A stretch of DNA of 64,000 bases, from the NCBI GenBank assembly GCA_937124585.1, contig CAKZKT010000147.1, forward strand, positions 46,104-110,103. The letters are read 5' to 3'. Below the pieces are notes generated by a model, which saw only the letters and a program-made list of their open reading frames with translations, searched no databases and was not told where the DNA came from. Positions 42,217 through 50,624 of this stretch are shown in pieces (position 1 is the stretch's first letter; every line of letters starts with the position of its first letter). The stretch comes from an uncultured Anaerolineae bacterium (GTDB lineage: Bacteria; Chloroflexota; Anaerolineae; CG2-30-64-16). A program made the translations under genes and the position numbers.

Positions 42217-43293
42217 ATGGATGAGACCACCGTCGAAGGACTGTATCTCAAACTCAAACGCATGATCGGCGACTATACGCCCGATTTCGAGCTGCGCTAT
42301 AAAGCCGAACTGGCCGCCGAGATCATCCGGCTGAAGGCGGAGAAAAACGCCGTAATCCTCGGCCACAACTACATGGAGCCGGCGCTGTATCACACGATTC
42401 CGGACTTCGTCGGCGACTCGCTGGAGCTGAGCCGCAAGGCCGCCCGCACCGACAAGGACATCATCGTCTTCTGCGGCGTAAAATTCATGGCCGAGACGGC
42501 AAAGATCCTCAACCCGACGAAGACCGTGCTGTTGCCGTCGGAGAAGGCCGGCTGTTCGCTGGCCGCCAGCATTACTGCCGAAGATGTGCGCGCGCTCAAA
42601 GCGCGCTTCCCCGGCGTGCCGGTGGTCAGCTACGTCAACACCTACGCGGACGTCAAAGCCGAATCAGACATCTGCTGCACGTCGAGCAACGCGGCAAAAG
42701 TCGTCAAATCACTCTCATCCGACACGGTCATCTTCCTGCCCGACGAGTATCTGGCGCGCAACGTGGCGCGTGAGACCGGCAAGCGCATCATCTTCCCATC
42801 GCTGCTCGAACCGGGCATTTCGGCCCAGCCAACGGAAACGGGACAGGCTGCGGAAGACGCCGGTTATGCCGGCACCATGATCGGCTGGCGTGGCCGCTGT
42901 GAGGTGCACGAGAAGTTCACGGTGGACGATATCCGCCGCGTGCGGCAACAGTTCCCCGACGTGGTGATCCTGGCACACCCGGAATGCAGCCCGGAGGTCA
43001 CTGCCGCGGCTGATTTCTCCGGCAGCACCGCCGCGATGATTCGCTACGTCGAGCAGACGGCCGCGCCGCGCTACCTGCTGCTGACCGAATGCGCGATGGG
43101 CGAGAACATCGCCGCGGCCAACCCGGATAAGGAAATGCTGCGGCTCTGCTCGGTGCGCTGCCCGCACATGAACCAGATCACCCTGGAAGATACTCTCAAG
43201 GCGCTCCAGCTCAATCGTTACGTGATCGAGGTGCCGGAAGAAATCCGCGTCCGGGCTGTGCAGGCGGTGGAGCGAATGATCGCGATCGGATAG
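42217..43293 (+). CDS. nadA: Quinolinate synthase
   Basis: Motifs ILGHNY, GDSLELS, FCGVKFMAE, GCSLA, YVNT, CEVH, HPEC and CPHM. Start could be 42199 or 42217. Confidence 0.96.
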   Translation: MDETTVEGLYLKLKRMIGDYTPDFELRYKAELAAEIIRLKAEKNAVILGHNYMEPALYHTIPDFVGDSLELSRKAARTDKDIIVFCGVKFMAETAKILNPTKTVLLPSEKAGCSLAASITAEDVRALKARFPGVPVVSYVNTYADVKAESDICCTSSNAAKVVKSLSSDTVIFLPDEYLARNVARETGKRIIFPSLLEPGISAQPTETGQAAEDAGYAGTMIGWRGRCEVHEKFTVDDIRRVRQQFPDVVILAHPECSPEVTAAADFSGSTAAMIRYVEQTAAPRYLLLTECAMGENIAAANPDKEMLRLCSVRCPHMNQITLEDTLKALQLNRYVIEVPEEIRVRAVQAVERMIAIG

Positions 43294-43299
43294 GAAACC

Positions 43300-44907
43300 A
43301 TGATCCAGACCGAAGTCCTCATCATTGGCTGCGGGATCGCCGGCGCTACGACTGCGTTGCGGCTGGCGCGCAACCCACAGCGGCGCATCGTCGTGCTGAC
43401 GCGCGCCCACGATCCCATCGAATCGAACACCCGTTACGCGCAGGGCGGCATCGTCTCCCGTGGCCCGGACGACACTGCCGATCTGTGCGTTGCCGATATC
43501 CTGGCTGCCGGCGCAGGCGCCAGTTCGCCCAGGGCCGCGCGCATCCTGGCCGAAGAGGGCCCCACAGTAGTACGCGAGGTTCTGATCGAAACCGCCAACG
43601 TGCCTTTCGACCGGGATGCGAACGGCGACCTGGCCTGGGGCAAGGAAGCCGCCCACTCGCGGCGGCGCATCCTCCACGTCGGCGACGGCACCGGCCAGGC
43701 CATCATGCAGGGACTCGTCGCCGCGCTGCGCCGCTGCCCCAACGTGACCATCCTGCCCCACTCGACTGCGGTGGACCTGCTCACCTTCCCGCATCATTCG
43801 CGCAATCCGCTGGACGCCTATCGGCCGATCACCTGCTACGGCGCCTACGTTTTCGATCGCGAGGAGCGCACAGTGCACCGCTATATCGCGGCCGCCACCG
43901 TGCTGGCCACCGGCGGGCTGGGACGCATCTACCGTAACACGACCAATCCACCCGGCGCGCGTGGCGATGGACTGGCACTGGCGCATCGGGCCGGCGCGCG
44001 CATCATCAACGCCGAGTACATCCAGTTCCACCCCACCGCGCTGGCTGCCCCGGGCGCCGAGGGCTTCCTGATCAGCGAAGCCGTGCGCGGCGAGGGCGGC
44101 GTGCTGCTCTCGCCGGACGGCCGGCCGTTTATGGCCAAATACTCGCCGGACTGGAAGGACCTGGCCCCGCGCGATGTGGTCGCGCGGGCCATCCATCACG
44201 AGATGGAGACCCACGGCTATTCTCATGTCTTGCTCGACATCGCCTCGCACATGCCCGCCGCCGAAATCCAGAGCCGGTTCCCGAACATCTACGCCAAATG
44301 CCTCGGGGTCGGCATTGACATTACCCGAGAGCCGATTCCGGTGGTGCCGGCCGCTCACTATTCGTGCGGCGGCGTTTGGGTGGACGAGTGGGGCCGCACG
44401 ACCATCGCCAACCTCTACGCGGTCGGCGAGGTGAGCTGTACGGGCCTGCACGGCGCCAATCGCCTGGCCTCCACCTCGCTGCTGGAAGGACTCGTCTGGG
44501 GCAACCGCGCCGCGCAACACATCGAGGCATGGCTGAACGCCGAGCCGGGCCTCAAACTGCCTGGCCGCGACCAGACCCCGCCCTGGGATGAGAGCGGCCT
44601 GATCGCCGAGGCCGACCCGGCGCTGATCCAGGGCGACATGCAGGTCATCCAGAACATCATGTGGCACTACGTCGGCCTGGTACGCAGCGCCGATCGCCTC
44701 TCGCGTGCCATCCGCGAACTGCGTCACCTGTGGAACGAAATCGAGACCTTCTACCGCATGACCAAACTGAGCGACGGCCTGATCGGCCTGCGCAACGCCG
44801 TCGAAGTGGCGCTGATCATCGCACAGGCGGCACGACACAATCGCCAGAGCCGCGGCTGCCACTACCGCTCCGATTCGGTATCGCTCGAAGGGGATCGCCT
44901 GTTGTGA
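43300..44907 (+). CDS. nadB: L-aspartate oxidase
   Basis: Motifs GCGIAG, AQGGI, QFHPT, LISEAVRGEG, LAPRDVV, HGANRLASTSL and SRGCHYR. Confidence 0.95.
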   Translation: MIQTEVLIIGCGIAGATTALRLARNPQRRIVVLTRAHDPIESNTRYAQGGIVSRGPDDTADLCVADILAAGAGASSPRAARILAEEGPTVVREVLIETANVPFDRDANGDLAWGKEAAHSRRRILHVGDGTGQAIMQGLVAALRRCPNVTILPHSTAVDLLTFPHHSRNPLDAYRPITCYGAYVFDREERTVHRYIAAATVLATGGLGRIYRNTTNPPGARGDGLALAHRAGARIINAEYIQFHPTALAAPGAEGFLISEAVRGEGGVLLSPDGRPFMAKYSPDWKDLAPRDVVARAIHHEMETHGYSHVLLDIASHMPAAEIQSRFPNIYAKCLGVGIDITREPIPVVPAAHYSCGGVWVDEWGRTTIANLYAVGEVSCTGLHGANRLASTSLLEGLVWGNRAAQHIEAWLNAEPGLKLPGRDQTPPWDESGLIAEADPALIQGDMQVIQNIMWHYVGLVRSADRLSRAIRELRHLWNEIETFYRMTKLSDGLIGLRNAVEVALIIAQAARHNRQSRGCHYRSDSVSLEGDRLL

Positions 44908-44985
44908 GGAACCCCCATAGACGAAAACGCATGGCTTGAGCCCCGCACCTGGGCCGTCGAACCACTCGCTCGCGATGCCGCCGAG

Positions 44986-45780
44986 GTGAGAGCGCGACAT
45001 CAGGACAATCGCCGCGCCTGGAACGAGGGCGCGGCCAGCTACACCGCCGGGCTAGAGGAGGCCATCGCCTTCATCCGCAGCGGCCGCAGCAGCCTGCACC
45101 CCATCGAACGCGCCAACCTGGGCGACCTGCGGCCGTGGTGTGACGTGGCGATCCATCTCCAATGCGCGTCGGGCCGGGACACGCTGTCGCTCTGGAACGA
45201 GGGCGCGGCACGAGTGGTGGGCGTGGACATCTCCGACGTGCACATCGCCAACGCGCGACGCCTGGCGGAGGCGGTCGCCGCGCCGGCCACGTGGTATTGC
45301 TGCGACGTGCTGGACACACCGCACGAACTGAACGGCACGGCCGACCTGGTCTATACCGGCCGGGGCGCGCTCTGCTGGTTGCACGACCTGGACGGCTGGG
45401 CTGCGGTGATCTACCGGCTGCTCAAGCCGGGCGGCATCGTGCACGTGTTCGACGGCCACCCGGCCGCGTGGCTGTTCGATGCCGAAGCGGAAACATTGGT
45501 GGCATCCGGCGCGGATTACTTCAGCCACGCGGAGTGGAACCAGGGCTGGCCCACGACCTACATTGGCGATCTCGGCCGGCCGGTCGTCGAGCTGGCACGC
45601 AAACACGAACGGCTGTGGCCGCTGGCCGCCGTCTTCATGGCGCTGCGCCGCGCCGGCCTGACCGTCGAACTGTTCGGCGAATACCCCGAGGACTTTTGGG
45701 ACAGCTTTCCCCGGCTCCGGCCGGAGCTGCGCGGACGGATTCCCATGACATTCGCGATGCTAGCGCGCCGGCCGACGTAG
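44986..45780 (+). CDS. Class I SAM-dependent methyltransferase
   Basis: Motifs HLQCASGRD, GVDIS, DLVYTGRGALCWL and LKPGG. Start uncertain (see the ATA finding). Confidence 0.85.
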   Translation: MRARHQDNRRAWNEGAASYTAGLEEAIAFIRSGRSSLHPIERANLGDLRPWCDVAIHLQCASGRDTLSLWNEGAARVVGVDISDVHIANARRLAEAVAAPATWYCCDVLDTPHELNGTADLVYTGRGALCWLHDLDGWAAVIYRLLKPGGIVHVFDGHPAAWLFDAEAETLVASGADYFSHAEWNQGWPTTYIGDLGRPVVELARKHERLWPLAAVFMALRRAGLTVELFGEYPEDFWDSFPRLRPELRGRIPMTFAMLARRPT

Positions 45781-45810: not shown

Positions 45811-46911
45811 TCAGGCCGCCAGCGCCGCCATTGCCGCGCGGAAATCGCGGCGACCCAATCCCAGGCGAAAATGATCGCCGGCGACCTCGAACACATCGCC
45901 CGGCAAGATCATCGTATCGTACTGCTCCAGGGCGCGGCGACAGAACTCGGCGACCGGGGAGCCGGCGATGAACTGCGGAAAGGCGACCGGCCCGGCCTGC
46001 GGCGGCAGCCAGCGAAAACGGTCGGGGTGGCCGGCGAAGAACTGCTCGGCCAGCGTCAGATTCGCGCGGATGATGGCCAGGTTGCGCGCCGTGATCTGCT
46101 CGGCGCGACGCAGCGCCATGAGGCCCAGGATCTCGGCCGGCGCGCTGTTGCAGATCGTGGTGTAATCCCGAAACGCCTGCGCGCGCGCCAGGAACGACCG
46201 ATCGTGGGTGGCCAGCCAGCCGATGCGCAGGCCGGGCAGGCCGAACGCCTTCGACAGGCCCCCCAGCGCAATGCCCCGCTCGTACACGTCGGCGACCGAG
46301 GGCAGTCGACGCCCGGGATCGTACTCCAGCAGACGATACATCTCGTCTGCAAAGACGACCAGGTTGTGTTGCCGCGCCAGGTCAAGGATGGTGTTCAGCT
46401 CATCGCGGCCGGGCAGATAGCCCGTCGGATTGTGCGGGAAGTTAATCACGAGCAGCCGCGTGGCCGGGGTGATATGCTGCTCCAGCGCTGCCAGGTCGAG
46501 CCGCCAGCCCGACGCGTCGGGCTGCAGCGTCCAGCGTGTCGTCCGCGCGCCGAGCGCGCTTGCCACCTCGTACAGCGACTGATAGCCCGGAAAGGTGACG
46601 ATGACTCCGTCGCCCGGCGCCACCAGCACGTTCATGGCGATGAAGATCAGCTCTTCGGGCGCAGCGATCAGCACCTCGTCGGCTGCGATGCCCTCGTAGA
46701 GCGCGGCTGCCGCGCTGCGCAGCAACGGATGCCCTGCCGACTCCGTGTAGCCCAGCTTCAGATCGCGCCACAATGCCAGCGACTCATCATCTGCCAGCGC
46801 CAGCAGCTCTGCCAGCGTCAGCGCCTCGCAATCGGAGGCGCTGAGCAGATAGCGCGCGCTGAACTCATGGGCGGCGAAAAAGCGTTCGAGCTTGAACTCG
46901 CGCAGCTGCAT
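45811..46911 (-). CDS. Class I/II PLP-dependent aminotransferase
   Basis: Motifs NFPHNPTG, DEMYR and SKAFGLPGLRIGW. Confidence 0.9.
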   Translation of the reverse strand: MQLREFKLERFFAAHEFSARYLLSASDCEALTLAELLALADDESLALWRDLKLGYTESAGHPLLRSAAAALYEGIAADEVLIAAPEELIFIAMNVLVAPGDGVIVTFPGYQSLYEVASALGARTTRWTLQPDASGWRLDLAALEQHITPATRLLVINFPHNPTGYLPGRDELNTILDLARQHNLVVFADEMYRLLEYDPGRRLPSVADVYERGIALGGLSKAFGLPGLRIGWLATHDRSFLARAQAFRDYTTICNSAPAEILGLMALRRAEQITARNLAIIRANLTLAEQFFAGHPDRFRWLPPQAGPVAFPQFIAGSPVAEFCRRALEQYDTMILPGDVFEVAGDHFRLGLGRRDFRAAMAALAA

Positions 46912-46916
46912 CGGCC

Positions 46917-48956
46917 CTACTGACCCAACATGGCTTTGATCGTCTGGTCAAACTGCTCGAAAGGCAGCGCGCCCGAGATGGGCCGGGTGGTCAGCGTTCT
47001 GCCCTGAGCATCCACTCGATTCAGGAAGAAGGCCGGGGTGCCTCGCACGCCCAGTTTTGTCCCCTCTTCCAGGTCCTGACGAATGCGCGCGTCCGTGCGG
47101 GCATCTTTCACGCACGCGTCGTACCTGCCGGCGTCCACGCCGAGGGACAGCGCGTGCTGCCGGAACCGCTCGGCAGCGTCGCCGGCGTTGGCCCAGCTGC
47201 TCTGGTTGGCGAACAGCCAGTCGTGCATGACCCAGAACAGCCTGGGCGCCTGCAGGCCGGCACAATAGGACGCCCTGGCCGCAGGCATGGCATTCGGATG
47301 GTTACTCAACGGAAAATGCCGAAAGATCGTGACCACCTTGCCGGTAACTCCGTACGCTTCATCCAGAAGCGGGCCCGTCTGCAGCTCATGACGGGCACAG
47401 AACGGTCACTGGAAATCCGAGAACACGACCAGCCGGATCGGCGCCCGCGGATCACCGCGATAGAAGTTGCCCTCCATGTCCACACCGACCGGCTGATCGG
47501 CACGCTGGACGGCCACGGCAGCCGGCGTGGGCTGGCCGGCTGCGCCGGGCGCGGCCGACTGAGGTTTCTGCAGATCCTGGATCACCTTCTCGAACTGCTC
47601 TACCGCGATCAGGCCCGGCACACGCAGGCCGGACTGCGCGCTGGGATTCAGCACCAGGAAGTACGGGACCTGCGACACCTGGATCTGCTCGGCCAGCGCC
47701 ATGTCGGCATCGAGCTGTTCCTGGCCGACGGCGTCGGCCACGCAGGTCTCAAATCTGACCACATCCAGGCCCAGGACTTTGGCGTAGTCGGCCATGGCCG
47801 CACGGTCCCCCTCTTGCCACCGGCCCTGATTAGCCGTCAAGCTGTCGGCGAACTCCCAAAACTTGTCCTGATCGCCCGCGCAGAAAGCTGCTAGCGCCGT
47901 CTGGGGCGCGGAAACCGCCAGATATTTGTAAATGAGACGCACCTGGCCGGTTTTGACGTATTTGTCCTGCAACACAGGCTGCACTGTCCTGGCGAATTCA
48001 ACGCACGCCTCACAGCCGAAATCGCTGAACACGAAGATGAGGATCGGCGCCTGCCTCTCGCCCAGCGAAGGGCTGCCGTCATACGTGAAGCCCGGCCGGT
48101 TCGGATTGGCATCGTAGGGCTGGACGTTCGGGGGCAGCGGCGTTGGGGTCGGCGGCGGTCGGAGGCCCTGATCGGCCTTCGCGATGAGCTTCTGAAACTC
48201 GGCGAACGGGTAGGCCCCGGCCAGGAACCAGTCGTTGATGAAGAAGGCTGGTGTGCCCTGGACGCCCAGCTTCATGCCGTCCTCCAGATCGCGCGCAATG
48301 CGCGCTTCGGTCTGCGGATCGCGCACACAGGCATCATAGCGGGCGGCATCTGCGCCGAAGGAGAGAGCCGTCTGGCGAAAACGCGTCGCCGCATCCGCGG
48401 CGTTCGACCAGGAGGTCTGGTTGGCGAAAAGCCACTGGTGCATGGCCCAGAAGAGGCGCGGGGCCTGTTGGCCGGCGCAATAGGCCGCTTTGCTGGCCGG
48501 CAGCGCGTTTGGATGAAGCTGTTGCAGCGGAAAGTGCCGGAAATAGGCCACGACTTTGCCGGTAGCGATGTAGGTCTCTTCCAGGAGCGGGCCTGTCTGC
48601 AGGACGTGGCGCGCGCAGAACGGGCACTGGAAATCGGAGAACTCCACCAGCTTGATCGCCGCGTTCGGGTTGCCGCGGTAGAAATTTCCGTCGGCATCCA
48701 CCCCCACGGGAATGTTGGAGACCATCTCCGTCTGGGCCGCGGCCGTGGGCGCGGCCGGGCCGAGCGGGACGAGCGCCGTCGGCGAGGCGGTCGGCACAGG
48801 TTGAATGGCTGTTGCCCCCGCAGTCGGTGCAGGTGAGACGCGGCGAGGGCCAACCGGCAGGCCCGAAAAACATGCCGCGGCGATCAGCGCCACAAGCAGC
48901 AACGTCAGGCCCGCGACGGCGCTTCGGGGGCTGACACCCGAACGGATTTGCTTCAT
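46917..48956 (-). CDS. Three-domain DsbA-like lipoprotein with probable selenocysteine (UPFC), 679 aa if the TGA at 47406-47408 is read through
   Basis: ORFs 47406-48956 and 46917-47336 are in the same frame, separated only by this TGA. Domain 1 reads FSDFQCPFCARH, domain 2 FSDFGCEAC and domain 3 FSDFQ*PFCARH. GTPAFF cis-Pro loops; lipobox IAAAC. Confidence 0.88.
47355..47396 (-). promoter_or_regulatory. Candidate bacterial SECIS element
   Basis: On the mRNA, 9 nt after UGA: GCCCGUC-AUGAGCUGCA-GACGGGC (7-bp stem), then CGCUUC-UGGAU-GAAGCG. Absent from the Cys-containing domain 1. Confidence 0.65.
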
Positions 48957-48987
48957 GAATGAGCCTCCTCAGCAAAAATTGCGGAGC

Positions 48988-49353
48988 CTAGCGCCGCGCG
49001 GATTGCTGCAAAAATGTCTCCATCAGGCCGAAGATGACGCCGATCGTAATGGCAGCCAGCCAGCTGAATGCGGCGATCAGCCGCAAGCCGATACAGATCG
49101 CCGCCCACAGGCCGATCCACATGGCCACGCGGAGCGCCACGGCCGGATACTCTCCGACGAGCGGCGCTCTCAGGCGACGGGCCGCCACCCACACCCACGG
49201 CGCGGCCGTCATCGTCAACGCCAGGGCCAACATCGGCAGCACCAGGATCAGGCCGGTGAGCGAAAAAGGCAGCGCGCCGGTCAGAAAAACGACGCCGGCC
49301 CAGCCCAGCAACGCCAGCGGCACACTCAAAAGCCACAGGGTACGCGCAGACAT
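48988..49353 (-). CDS. Small 4-TM membrane protein
   Basis: 121 aa with four hydrophobic segments, co-oriented with its neighbours. Confidence 0.7.
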   Translation of the reverse strand: MSARTLWLLSVPLALLGWAGVVFLTGALPFSLTGLILVLPMLALALTMTAAPWVWVAARRLRAPLVGEYPAVALRVAMWIGLWAAICIGLRLIAAFSWLAAITIGVIFGLMETFLQQSARR

Positions 49354-49367
49354 GGCACGACGCCCCT

Positions 49368-50624
49368 TCAACGCGACGCGTCGGCCGCCCGCGCCGCGTT
49401 ATCGGCCTCATCGCCAGCAGTGAACGGCAGAGCCTCCAGCGCCTGCTCGACGCGCGCCTTGAGCAACACGCCATTAGGGCGCTGGCCGAGGCCCCACAAT
49501 GAGGATATAATTGTAGCAGTGAACCGCTCGGTCATCTGTTTGAGCGCTTCCGGTTTGATCCGTTCGCCGTGCTCAAACCAGAGCGCGGCTGCATGTCCCA
49601 TCACGATGGTGGTCGAGCTGGCGATTGCCGCCGAGAGCAGCCAGCCCGGCACGCCGCCCAGCTTGCTCAGCTCCTGGAACAATGTGCGGCCAGCAAAGCC
49701 CAGCCCGAACGTGGCTGCCAGTTCTTTGGCCATGGACAGGCTGATCGGCCGGCCATAGATGCGGCTGATGCCGACGACCATGATGGCCTGCGTCGTCACC
49801 AGCGGGACAAAATCCACGATCGGCAACGGTGCGAGCGCGATCACGGCCGCCAGGCTGGCCGCGGTGATGGTCGAACGGCGGGCGAGCTCCCGGCGATAGG
49901 CCGGCATGGCGCTGCCCAACGCGGCCACCAGCTCCGGCTCGGAGATGGCGATGGCCATCAAGATCGGGAGAAGGTTGGTGCCATCTTTGGCCGAGATGGG
50001 GATGACCTGTTCCGGCTTGAGACCAAGGCTGGCGGCAGCTTCCTGGGTCACGGCCGCCAGGTCGCGCTTCACCAGATCGCTCTTGTTCAGGACGACGACA
50101 TATGGCTTGCCCAGGCCGACCAGCCCGGTGAAGACCTCCAGCTCGTTGCGTCGGATGCCCTGACCCGCGTCGAACACGATGATCAGGAAATCAGCCGCGC
50201 GCGCGGCATCCAGCCCGCGCTGACATTCCAACGCGCCGTATGCGCCGGCCGCGTCGGCGCCGGGGGTGTCCACGACGATGAACAGCCCCGCCTCGGCCTC
50301 CTGCGGCAGGCGCGTGGTGCCCGGCAGAGGACTCACGGCCGCAGCCGCCTGCGGTTCCTGGATGAACTGATTGTAGAGAGTGGACTTCCCGACGTTGGTC
50401 GGGCCGACGATGGCCACTCGCTGCTTGCGGCCAAATGCCGTCTTGACATGGGCAGCCGCCATGCCCACCAGCAGCCGCAGCAGCTGCCGCTCTGAGGGCA
50501 CGCCGCGCAGGATGCTCAGCAACGCCTCACGCTCATCCGGAGAGAGCGCCGCCCAGGTTGCAGCCAGCTGACGCTGAGTCGTCGGCGGCAATGATTCCAG
50601 GAGTTCGTTGATCGAAAGTTGCAT
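49368..50624 (-). CDS. Era/MMR_HSR1-like GTPase with C-terminal DUF697/YcjF-like membrane domain
   Basis: G1 GPTNVGKS, G2 PGTT, G3 DTPG and G4 NKSD, followed by a hydrophobic PLPIVD..Q..MV..I..IYG region. Confidence 0.82.
   Translation of the reverse strand: MQLSINELLESLPPTTQRQLAATWAALSPDEREALLSILRGVPSERQLLRLLVGMAAAHVKTAFGRKQRVAIVGPTNVGKSTLYNQFIQEPQAAAAVSPLPGTTRLPQEAEAGLFIVVDTPGADAAGAYGALECQRGLDAARAADFLIIVFDAGQGIRRNELEVFTGLVGLGKPYVVVLNKSDLVKRDLAAVTQEAAASLGLKPEQVIPISAKDGTNLLPILMAIAISEPELVAALGSAMPAYRRELARRSTITAASLAAVIALAPLPIVDFVPLVTTQAIMVVGISRIYGRPISLSMAKELAATFGLGFAGRTLFQELSKLGGVPGWLLSAAIASSTTIVMGHAAALWFEHGERIKPEALKQMTERFTATIISSLWGLGQRPNGVLLKARVEQALEALPFTAGDEADNAARAADASR

Follow-up and report, generated by a model that had tools for sequence, protein, structure and literature searches.

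Do two adjacent open reading frames (ORFs) on the reverse strand of a 64,000-nucleotide stretch from an uncultured Anaerolineae bacterium (contig CAKZKT010000147.1; this whole stretch is referred to as the window) represent separate coding units, or a single gene in which an internal TGA is decoded as selenocysteine (Sec)? Translation of positions 46917-48956 (reverse strand) yields one frame of 679 codons that contains a single internal stop, TGA at 47406-47408, and closes with TAG at 46917-46919, further stops or frameshifts being absent, exactly as described in a first-pass annotation made from the letters of the window. In the third CxxC motif (FSDFQ*PFC), the TGA stands where the first Cys would be expected, the counterparts being FSDFQCPFC with a TGC codon at 48624-48626 in domain 1 and FSDFGCEAC in domain 2. 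When ORFs are listed with translation table 11, the frame is cut into an ORF of 516 amino acids (aa) at 47406-48956 and a 139-aa ORF with GTG start at 46917-47336. From the comparative evidence presented below, it is concluded with high confidence that both called ORFs form one gene predicted to encode a 679-residue selenoprotein, a three-domain member of NCBIfam family NF041057 in which the UGA specifies Sec. At the level of sequence comparison, the conservation of this UGA at the catalytic position, the hairpins downstream of it and the presence of the Sec machinery in the genome are all demonstrated. The gene is composed of the following features, SECIS denoting the selenocysteine insertion sequence.

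46917..48956, reverse strand: whole gene, 679 codons plus TAG stop, with one in-frame UGA predicted to encode Sec (U517).
48964..48970, reverse strand: Shine-Dalgarno-like GAGGAGG, 7 nucleotides 5' of the ATG at 48954-48956, as read from the sequence.
48870..48956, reverse strand: signal peptide with lipobox, residues 1-29, ending in ...LIAAAC, with Cys29 as predicted lipidation site.
48180..48689, reverse strand: domain 1, Cys form, a type-A DsbA-like module, residues 90-259 (best Pfam stretch), with CPFC at 48615-48626.
47571..48074, reverse strand: domain 2, a divergent type-B DsbA-like module, about residues 295-462, with CEAC at 48003-48014 and a Pfam Thioredoxin_2 stretch at residues 305-458.
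46920..47471, reverse strand: domain 3, putative Sec form, a type-A module, about residues 496-679, with UPFC at 47397-47408.
47406..47408, reverse strand: UGA, predicted selenocysteine U517, with alternation of TGA and TGC/TGT at this motif position in relatives.
47373..47396, reverse strand: candidate SECIS hairpin 1, 7-bp stem GCCCGUC/GACGGGC, 9 nucleotides after the UGA, plus 2-3 inner pairs.
47355..47371, reverse strand: candidate SECIS hairpin 2, 6-bp stem CGCUUC/GAAGCG with loop UGGAU.

For comparing the codon among relatives, domain 3 (197 aa) was searched against 41 genomes, comprising the window's own (G000), two from the same genus, 22 from the same family and 16 from the same class, and was matched in 39 of them. 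The best locus from each of 30 genomes was then scanned for the motif. Altogether, 58 motif matches were found in the 30 loci, with TGA at the first Cys position in 27 and TGC or TGT in 31, and the type-A domains (xSDFQ-x-P-F/Y-C) among them divide into 27 Sec (TGA) versus 17 Cys (TGC/TGT) copies. Hence, the alternation between TGA and Cys codons, which the first-pass annotation had named as a sign of a selenoprotein, is present in this family. Of the 30 loci, 21 encode one or more Sec copies; within the window's family, 19 of 25 genomes do so. The three-domain form was observed in 15 loci, where domain 3 bears Sec in 14 cases and Cys in a single one (L036), while domain 1 is Sec in six, Cys in eight (including G000) and unreadable in one due to a masked stretch. 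Six three-domain relatives possess two UGA-coded sites at one locus. In one of these double-Sec loci (L029 of G023, a genome only 77% complete), the Sec site of domain 1 is not in the same reading frame as that of domain 3, due perhaps to a frameshift, a split gene or an error in the assembly. The related genomes do not encode near-copies, since protein identity among them is 57-73%. Downstream of the UGA, the ratio of nonsynonymous to synonymous substitution rates (dN/dS) ranged from 0.17 to 0.31 in all 11 orthologue comparisons at dS values of 0.83-1.60, indicating that this region is translated and constrained; the decay past the codon that would have spoken against the first-pass annotation was not observed in these comparisons. 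Within the chain, domains 1 and 3 are 73% identical over 161 residues, whereas domain 2 shares 34% with domain 3.

These data bear directly on the possibility that the TGA is a nonsense mutation or a sequencing error in a gene for an all-Cys three-domain protein, of which only the 516-aa part is made. Such an origin would be in line with the 516-aa ORF obtained with table 11, and public collections contain many three-domain relatives of 640-690 aa with Cys at all active sites (for example, P0009 with 665 aa, 53% identity and 97% coverage). However, the recurrence of TGA at precisely this position in 27 copies, which stem from 21 genomes that are not near-copies of each other, purifying selection past the codon with neither a second stop nor a frameshift, and hairpins conserved specifically in the TGA copies (see below) are hardly compatible with a decaying or misread gene. 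Moreover, in the sole public DNA run found to hold the stretch, which is labelled hot springs metagenome, a contig over 47391-47575 is identical in every letter. This comparison is limited to contigs and leaves about 47597-48208 of the gene without cover, and the run is possibly the source sample; thus, the TGA at 47406, for which the first-pass annotation had proposed a check of reads, is found again with the same letters, but this agreement gives no independent support. A search of public runs returned no RNA run holding the stretch, a result without bearing on expression. Overall, a pseudogene or sequencing error is considered extremely improbable.

The same holds for an arrangement of two genes, a two-domain lipoprotein (47406-48956) followed by a 139-aa protein initiated at the GTG at 47336. 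Both ORFs are indeed listed under table 11, yet the 70 nucleotides between TGA and GTG code for PFCARHELQTGPLLDEAYGVTGK, a stretch that all orthologues conserve as protein, and a product starting at 47336 would be a DsbA fold deprived of its first strand, the active-site motif and a signal peptide. In addition, an alignment over the whole domain is obtained for the 14 domain-3 copies, which group together in phylogenetic analysis. A maximum-likelihood tree was calculated from 44 type-A domains after masking the Sec/Cys residue and omitting one short row (domain 3 of L036). As this tree was midpoint-rooted and the bootstrap had not settled (correlation 0.979), it does not give a direction of Sec/Cys changes. 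The 14 domain-3 copies in the tree, all of them Sec, form one clade (support 90/99), and therefore the duplication predates these genera and domains 1 and 3 have not been homogenised wholesale. In view of this shared history of complete domains, a separate downstream gene is scarcely credible. The domain-1-type copies, on the other hand, alternate between Sec and Cys, with seven label changes on the tree, at least five of which are forced by well-supported branches. Type-A copies from two other families of the class are also Sec and are followed by the same hairpins.

In the proposed selenoprotein gene, two hairpins lie within 54 nucleotides 3' of the UGA, namely the GCCCGUC/GACGGGC stem and, directly after it, CGCUUC-UGGAU-GAAGCG. 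In an alignment of the 27 Sec copies, standard base pairs occupy 88.5% of the pair cells, compared to 33-41% after sliding the partners by 1-3 columns. Two-sided, i.e., compensatory, changes are found in 8 of the 16 hairpin pairs against a mean of 1.4 in shuffled alignments, and the observed covariation score was reached by none of 500 shuffles, a count that is not a probability because the sequences are related. Hairpin 1 accounts for two-sided changes in 6 of its 10 pairs, and in L045 and L048 its arms are wholly different in sequence, yet still paired. Hairpin 2, in contrast, is exact (loop UGGAU or UGUAU) in 25 of the 27 Sec copies and in none of the 17 Cys copies. Thus, judged from this alignment, hairpin 1 is conserved as a structure and hairpin 2 as a sequence. 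With RNAalifold, to which no structure was supplied, hairpin 2 and the core of hairpin 1 are obtained again. In line with an additional constraint acting on the RNA, codon identity of the 14 domain-3 orthologues at positions encoding the same amino acid amounts to 0.82 at codons +1 to +17, reaching about 1.0 at codons +12 to +16, versus 0.53 at +18 to +150 and 0.69 in the 30 codons upstream.

Neither hairpin is present in the Cys copies, and in the domain-1 Cys paralogue of G000 differences at synonymous sites abolish hairpin 1. A recent change from Sec to Cys is suggested by L036 (G017), where both type-A domains bear TGC and the hairpins are nearly intact, hairpin 2 having a single mismatch per copy; selA is still encoded in this genome. 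Conversely, L048 lacks hairpin 2 and keeps the UGA together with a strong hairpin 1. Bacterial SECIS elements have a usual spacing between UGA and loop and follow a rule for a G in the loop. Because L048 retains hairpin 1 alone and its position agrees with this usual spacing, hairpin 1 rather than hairpin 2 is more likely the essential SECIS element. In G000, the selenoprotein gene is the sole exact match to the hairpin-2 sequence, while allowing up to two mismatches results in 43 matches versus 24 for the reversed control. A pattern of TGH plus hairpin 2 was also searched in 401 genomes sampled evenly across the phylum and matched only in G000 and G001, the sole members of the window's family drawn; the UGA plus hairpin-2 module was not found in the other 399 sampled genomes, representing 96 other families.

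Decoding of the UGA as Sec presupposes the corresponding machinery, for which the window's own genome (4.83 Mb in 164 contigs, 99.82% complete) was inspected. It encodes a tRNA-Sec (74.8 bits; assigned by ARAGORN as tRNA-SeC with anticodon tca), SelA (577 bits), SelB (309 bits, 350 with the C-terminal part) and two full-length SelD (377 and 363 bits), so that the complete set of components that the first-pass annotation had suggested to look for is encoded. Each of the two selD genes (C137:32079-33008, L019, and C89:3094-4026, L020) contains one in-frame TGA itself, with the U residue being placed in L020 only (...AAGUAAK...); both are probably selenoprotein genes as well. Beyond G000, selA was found in 39 of the 41 genomes searched, including all 25 of the window's family, and therefore the Cys forms in this family are not due to loss of the Sec trait.

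The stop-codon usage is of relevance for the alternative that the UGA is read through with another residue, either by near-cognate insertion of Trp or Cys or due to a lineage-wide reassignment of TGA. Nothing specific speaks for it, although an open frame alone cannot tell which residue is inserted. TGA terminates 52 of the 68 open frames of at least 300 codons in the window, including both neighbouring genes supported by Pfam, and also several orthologues of the selenoprotein gene terminate with TGA directly past the conserved C-terminus. Since TGA closes most genes in the window, its reassignment is rejected. Furthermore, the codon aligns exclusively with Cys codons and this at a redox-active site, it is followed by a SECIS-like structure, and a full Sec pathway is encoded in the genome, with selA retained among the relatives. 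Taken together, incorporation of a residue other than Sec is regarded as very improbable.

The chain containing the predicted Sec shows three stretches matching Thioredoxin_4/DSBA of Pfam, with PF13462 at an E-value of 2.8e-74 (249 bits) and PF01323 at 1.8e-33 (116 bits). In NCBIfam, the whole protein is assigned to NF041057, 'Rcas_1661 family thioredoxin-like (seleno)lipoprotein', with 425 bits in three stretches compared to a cut-off of 190. It shares with this family the UxxC motif, the lipoprotein N-terminus, the DsbA/Thioredoxin_4 fold and the alternation of Sec and Cys, but differs in its architecture, as the model comprises 247 positions equivalent to a signal peptide and one domain, whereas the window protein has 679 residues and an A-B-A' tandem. 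Hence, the deviation from the single-domain layout of NF041057 is an architectural variant and not a failed homology. The N-terminus displays a basic n-region, a hydrophobic run and an end of two small residues plus Cys, a pattern judged by eye as lipoprotein signal that recurs in all 13 N-termini of relatives printed. Cys29 is nearly invariant in an alignment of 49 sequences, lgt and lspA were found in G000, and a twin-arginine motif is absent from the N-terminus as read from the sequence. These observations point to a Sec-exported lipoprotein lipidated at Cys29. Each domain contains a CxxC-type site, a Pro at the cis-Pro position and a second Cys pair, a pattern fitting extracytoplasmic DsbA-type modules. 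The cis-Pro loop residues (T235-P236, P431 and T640-P641) and the second Cys pairs (C160/C210, C359/C405 and C565/C615) are invariant in the 49 sequences, and the latter probably form a structural disulfide in each module. Accordingly, the exported and probably lipid-anchored 679-aa protein with CPFC, CEAC and UPFC sites postulated in the first-pass annotation is supported by frame, Pfam matches and lipobox conservation. In one relative (L037 of G006), domain 2 does not have a CxxC motif, and its middle module is probably redox-inactive.

Several observations weigh against the selenoprotein assignment and the SECIS proposed for it. Folding of the first 49 nucleotides as a single sequence is no better than that of shuffled sequences (z -0.69), and the fold of 69 nucleotides is only modestly above shuffles (z -1.97). 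Therefore, the structural case rests on comparison, and the sequences compared are not independent. In a scan of 46800-49100 with E-values up to 10, no Rfam family was detected at the hairpins, the four matches obtained being at chance level (E 0.78-3.6). Likewise, in-frame TGA codons are absent before both one-mismatch matches of hairpin 2 in G000 and before the one two-mismatch match that was examined. As to the family assignment, domain 3 alone scores 135.8 bits and is thus under the NF041057 cut-off. One of the near-matches of hairpin 2 examined lies in a ribosomal-protein-like frame. A function of hairpin 2 as genome-wide SelB tag was also considered and rejected, as its near-matches in G000 do not follow in-frame TGA codons.

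Is a selenoprotein of this kind new? The first-pass annotation had regarded the extracytoplasmic Sec-containing DsbA-type protein as unusual, but its family is curated as NF041057 and corresponds to the selenoproteins named 'DsbG-like protein' (Kryukov & Gladyshev 2004) in the table of a 2026 review (PMC13188914). In other words, the selenoprotein reading is correct, whereas the family has been known since 2004. The same review states that the functions of members 'remain largely uncharacterized', and its table assigns one Sec per DsbG-like protein, in contrast to the six relatives of the window gene with two UGA sites. In the Sargasso Sea study (PMC1088965), UxxC selenoproteins are reported as DsbA-like (COG2761, nine sequences) and DsbG-like (COG1651, one sequence), and four DsbA-like plus two DsbG-like selenoproteins in sequenced bacteria are given in PMC1794560. 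The DsbA-like selenoprotein form 1 (PF01323/COG2761), whose first description came from the Sargasso Sea metagenomes of PMC1088965, resembles the window protein in the thioredoxin-fold DsbA-type domain, Sec as first residue of UxxC and a UGA immediately followed by a SECIS hairpin. It represents, however, another subfamily, as the window protein scores best with PF13462, and a lipoprotein or tandem architecture is not mentioned for it in the passages considered from that paper. Three-domain or double-Sec members from Chloroflexota may already be contained in the supplementary lists of PMC1794560, PMC5029168 and PMC13188914.

An affiliation with DsbG or DsbC of the E. coli type was rejected on the basis of bit scores far under the respective cut-offs (42.9 versus 124 with NF008657 and 27.4 versus 215 with NF008129); hence, 'DsbG-like' is a historical label only. 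Presumably, the dipeptide of the xPYC/xPFC-type active site resembles that of E. coli DsbG, and in some relatives the type-B domain has a CGYC similar to the one of DsbC. The same architecture as in the window protein is found in all-Cys three-domain proteins of 640-690 aa from Anaerolineae and other Chloroflexota, named 'thioredoxin domain-containing protein' or 'DsbA family protein' (among them P0009). These align to 86-99% of the query at 32-54% identity and share its invariant Cys pairs. They differ in having Cys at all three active sites and thus neither UGA nor SECIS. Closest by sequence among solved structures are DsbA-type proteins (depositor names: 4pwp/4pwo 'DsbA', 7unn, 3f4r and 3eu3 BdbD); residues 16-193 of domain 3 match 4pwp_A at an E-value of 1.9e-14 in an alignment that covers both the F-S-D-F-x-C-P-F-C motif and the cis-Pro loop G-T-P-A-F. 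In this comparison of sequences, the solved relatives are distant and, unlike the window protein, single-domain Cys enzymes.

As foreseen in the first-pass annotation, standard gene calling ends the gene at the UGA: in the public protein collection the window product has 516 aa, and the nearest relatives, unlike the all-Cys three-domain proteins, are entered as truncated pieces of 500-518 or 376-400 aa. The name of NF041057 appears on none of the 120 matches listed, where only about a quarter of the entries are named at all, and a full-text literature search for 'Rcas_1661' by name did not return a match. A search of a contig collection resulted in four loci, too few for a census, consisting of one Sec form with the same sequence as that of G001 and three Cys forms from other phyla. 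Among the loci outside the 30 scanned, a single-domain Cys-form DsbA-like protein on a contig titled Marine Group I thaumarchaeote (L055, match 2501-2884) shares 45% identity with domain 3 in a match of 128 residues and is nearer to it than many bacterial copies from the same class, which may reflect horizontal transfer or a misbinned contig. Besides, distant DsbA-like matches (36-43% identity) with one TGA occur, among others, at G002:C117:396-887, G001:C69:477-932, three places in G018 and G020:C12:141174-141665; they may be further single-domain selenoprotein members.

From the features of the chain, the following course can be proposed. SelB carrying Sec-tRNA(Sec) would decode the UGA at 47406-47408, and the product would be exported by its Sec-type lipoprotein signal, lipidated at Cys29 and thereby tethered outside the cytoplasmic membrane via a Pro/Ala-rich linker of about 60 residues. 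The mature chain would be composed of three modules of DsbA-like thioredoxin fold (A-B-A'), all equipped with a CxxC-type site, a cis-Pro loop and a further Cys pair, and probably act as an extracytoplasmic thiol-disulfide oxidoreductase, where module A' might attack by a selenolate nucleophile (UPFC) allowing for faster exchange. In doing so, it may serve as an oxidase, reductase or isomerase. VKOR is the usual substitute for DsbB in such lineages, and the VKOR homologue encoded in G000 (87.8 bits, G000:C144:36465-36848, L058) is a candidate redox partner. It resides within an open frame of 376 codons, far longer than the 134 positions of the VKOR model; hence, this homologue may be fused to another domain and may be relevant as a partner.

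The flanking genes, encoding a GTPase and an aminotransferase according to Pfam, are unrelated to the DsbA-like gene. A 173-aa ORF (48953-49474, reverse strand) overlaps in an ATGA with the start codon of the selenoprotein gene, and a 761-aa ORF (42715-45000, reverse strand) is located downstream beyond the aminotransferase gene. Both are without a Pfam match and may or may not be real genes, given the 64% G+C of the genome.

Sec decoding is generally accompanied by a certain amount of termination at UGA. Compatible with the selenoprotein reading, selenium shortage could thus cause a stop at UGA517 and release of a functional two-domain, Cys-only lipoprotein, as suggested in the first-pass annotation. 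In G000, the 516-residue product would indeed keep the lipobox and the complete domains 1 (CPFC) and 2 (CEAC), and the order Cys then Sec is common to 8 of the 15 three-domain relatives. In 6 of the 15, however, domain 1 is Sec as well, and a stop there leaves no folded domain; in several other relatives (L040, L041, L045 and L048), Sec is located in the first of two apparent domains, and a regulatory feature did not turn up. In view of Sec in domain 1 of relatives, a usable truncated product is not a conserved design, and such an isoform switch at UGA517 is unlikely. Extending this idea, one could envisage an enzyme tuned by selenium, with the full A-B-A' form in its presence, a stable A-B Cys-only lipoprotein of basal function in its absence and the two-hairpin SECIS setting the ratio, a scenario to which we likewise attach a low probability. 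If true, the Sec module would serve as a fast nucleophile beside two Cys modules, and the enzyme may mimic the two-headed DsbC/DsbG dimers in a single chain.

The established picture of Sec decoding and of DsbA-like selenoproteins is not changed by the gene described here. Its new points are modest, comprising the three-domain chain with internal Cys and Sec paralogues, the double-Sec relatives and a lineage-specific, covarying two-hairpin SECIS. For annotation practice, the case illustrates that a reading of the raw sequence can recover a true selenoprotein cut short by ordinary gene calling. For the biology of the family, the at least five switches between Sec and Cys among close relatives that have all kept selA represent a natural system to ask what Sec buys a DsbA-type site.

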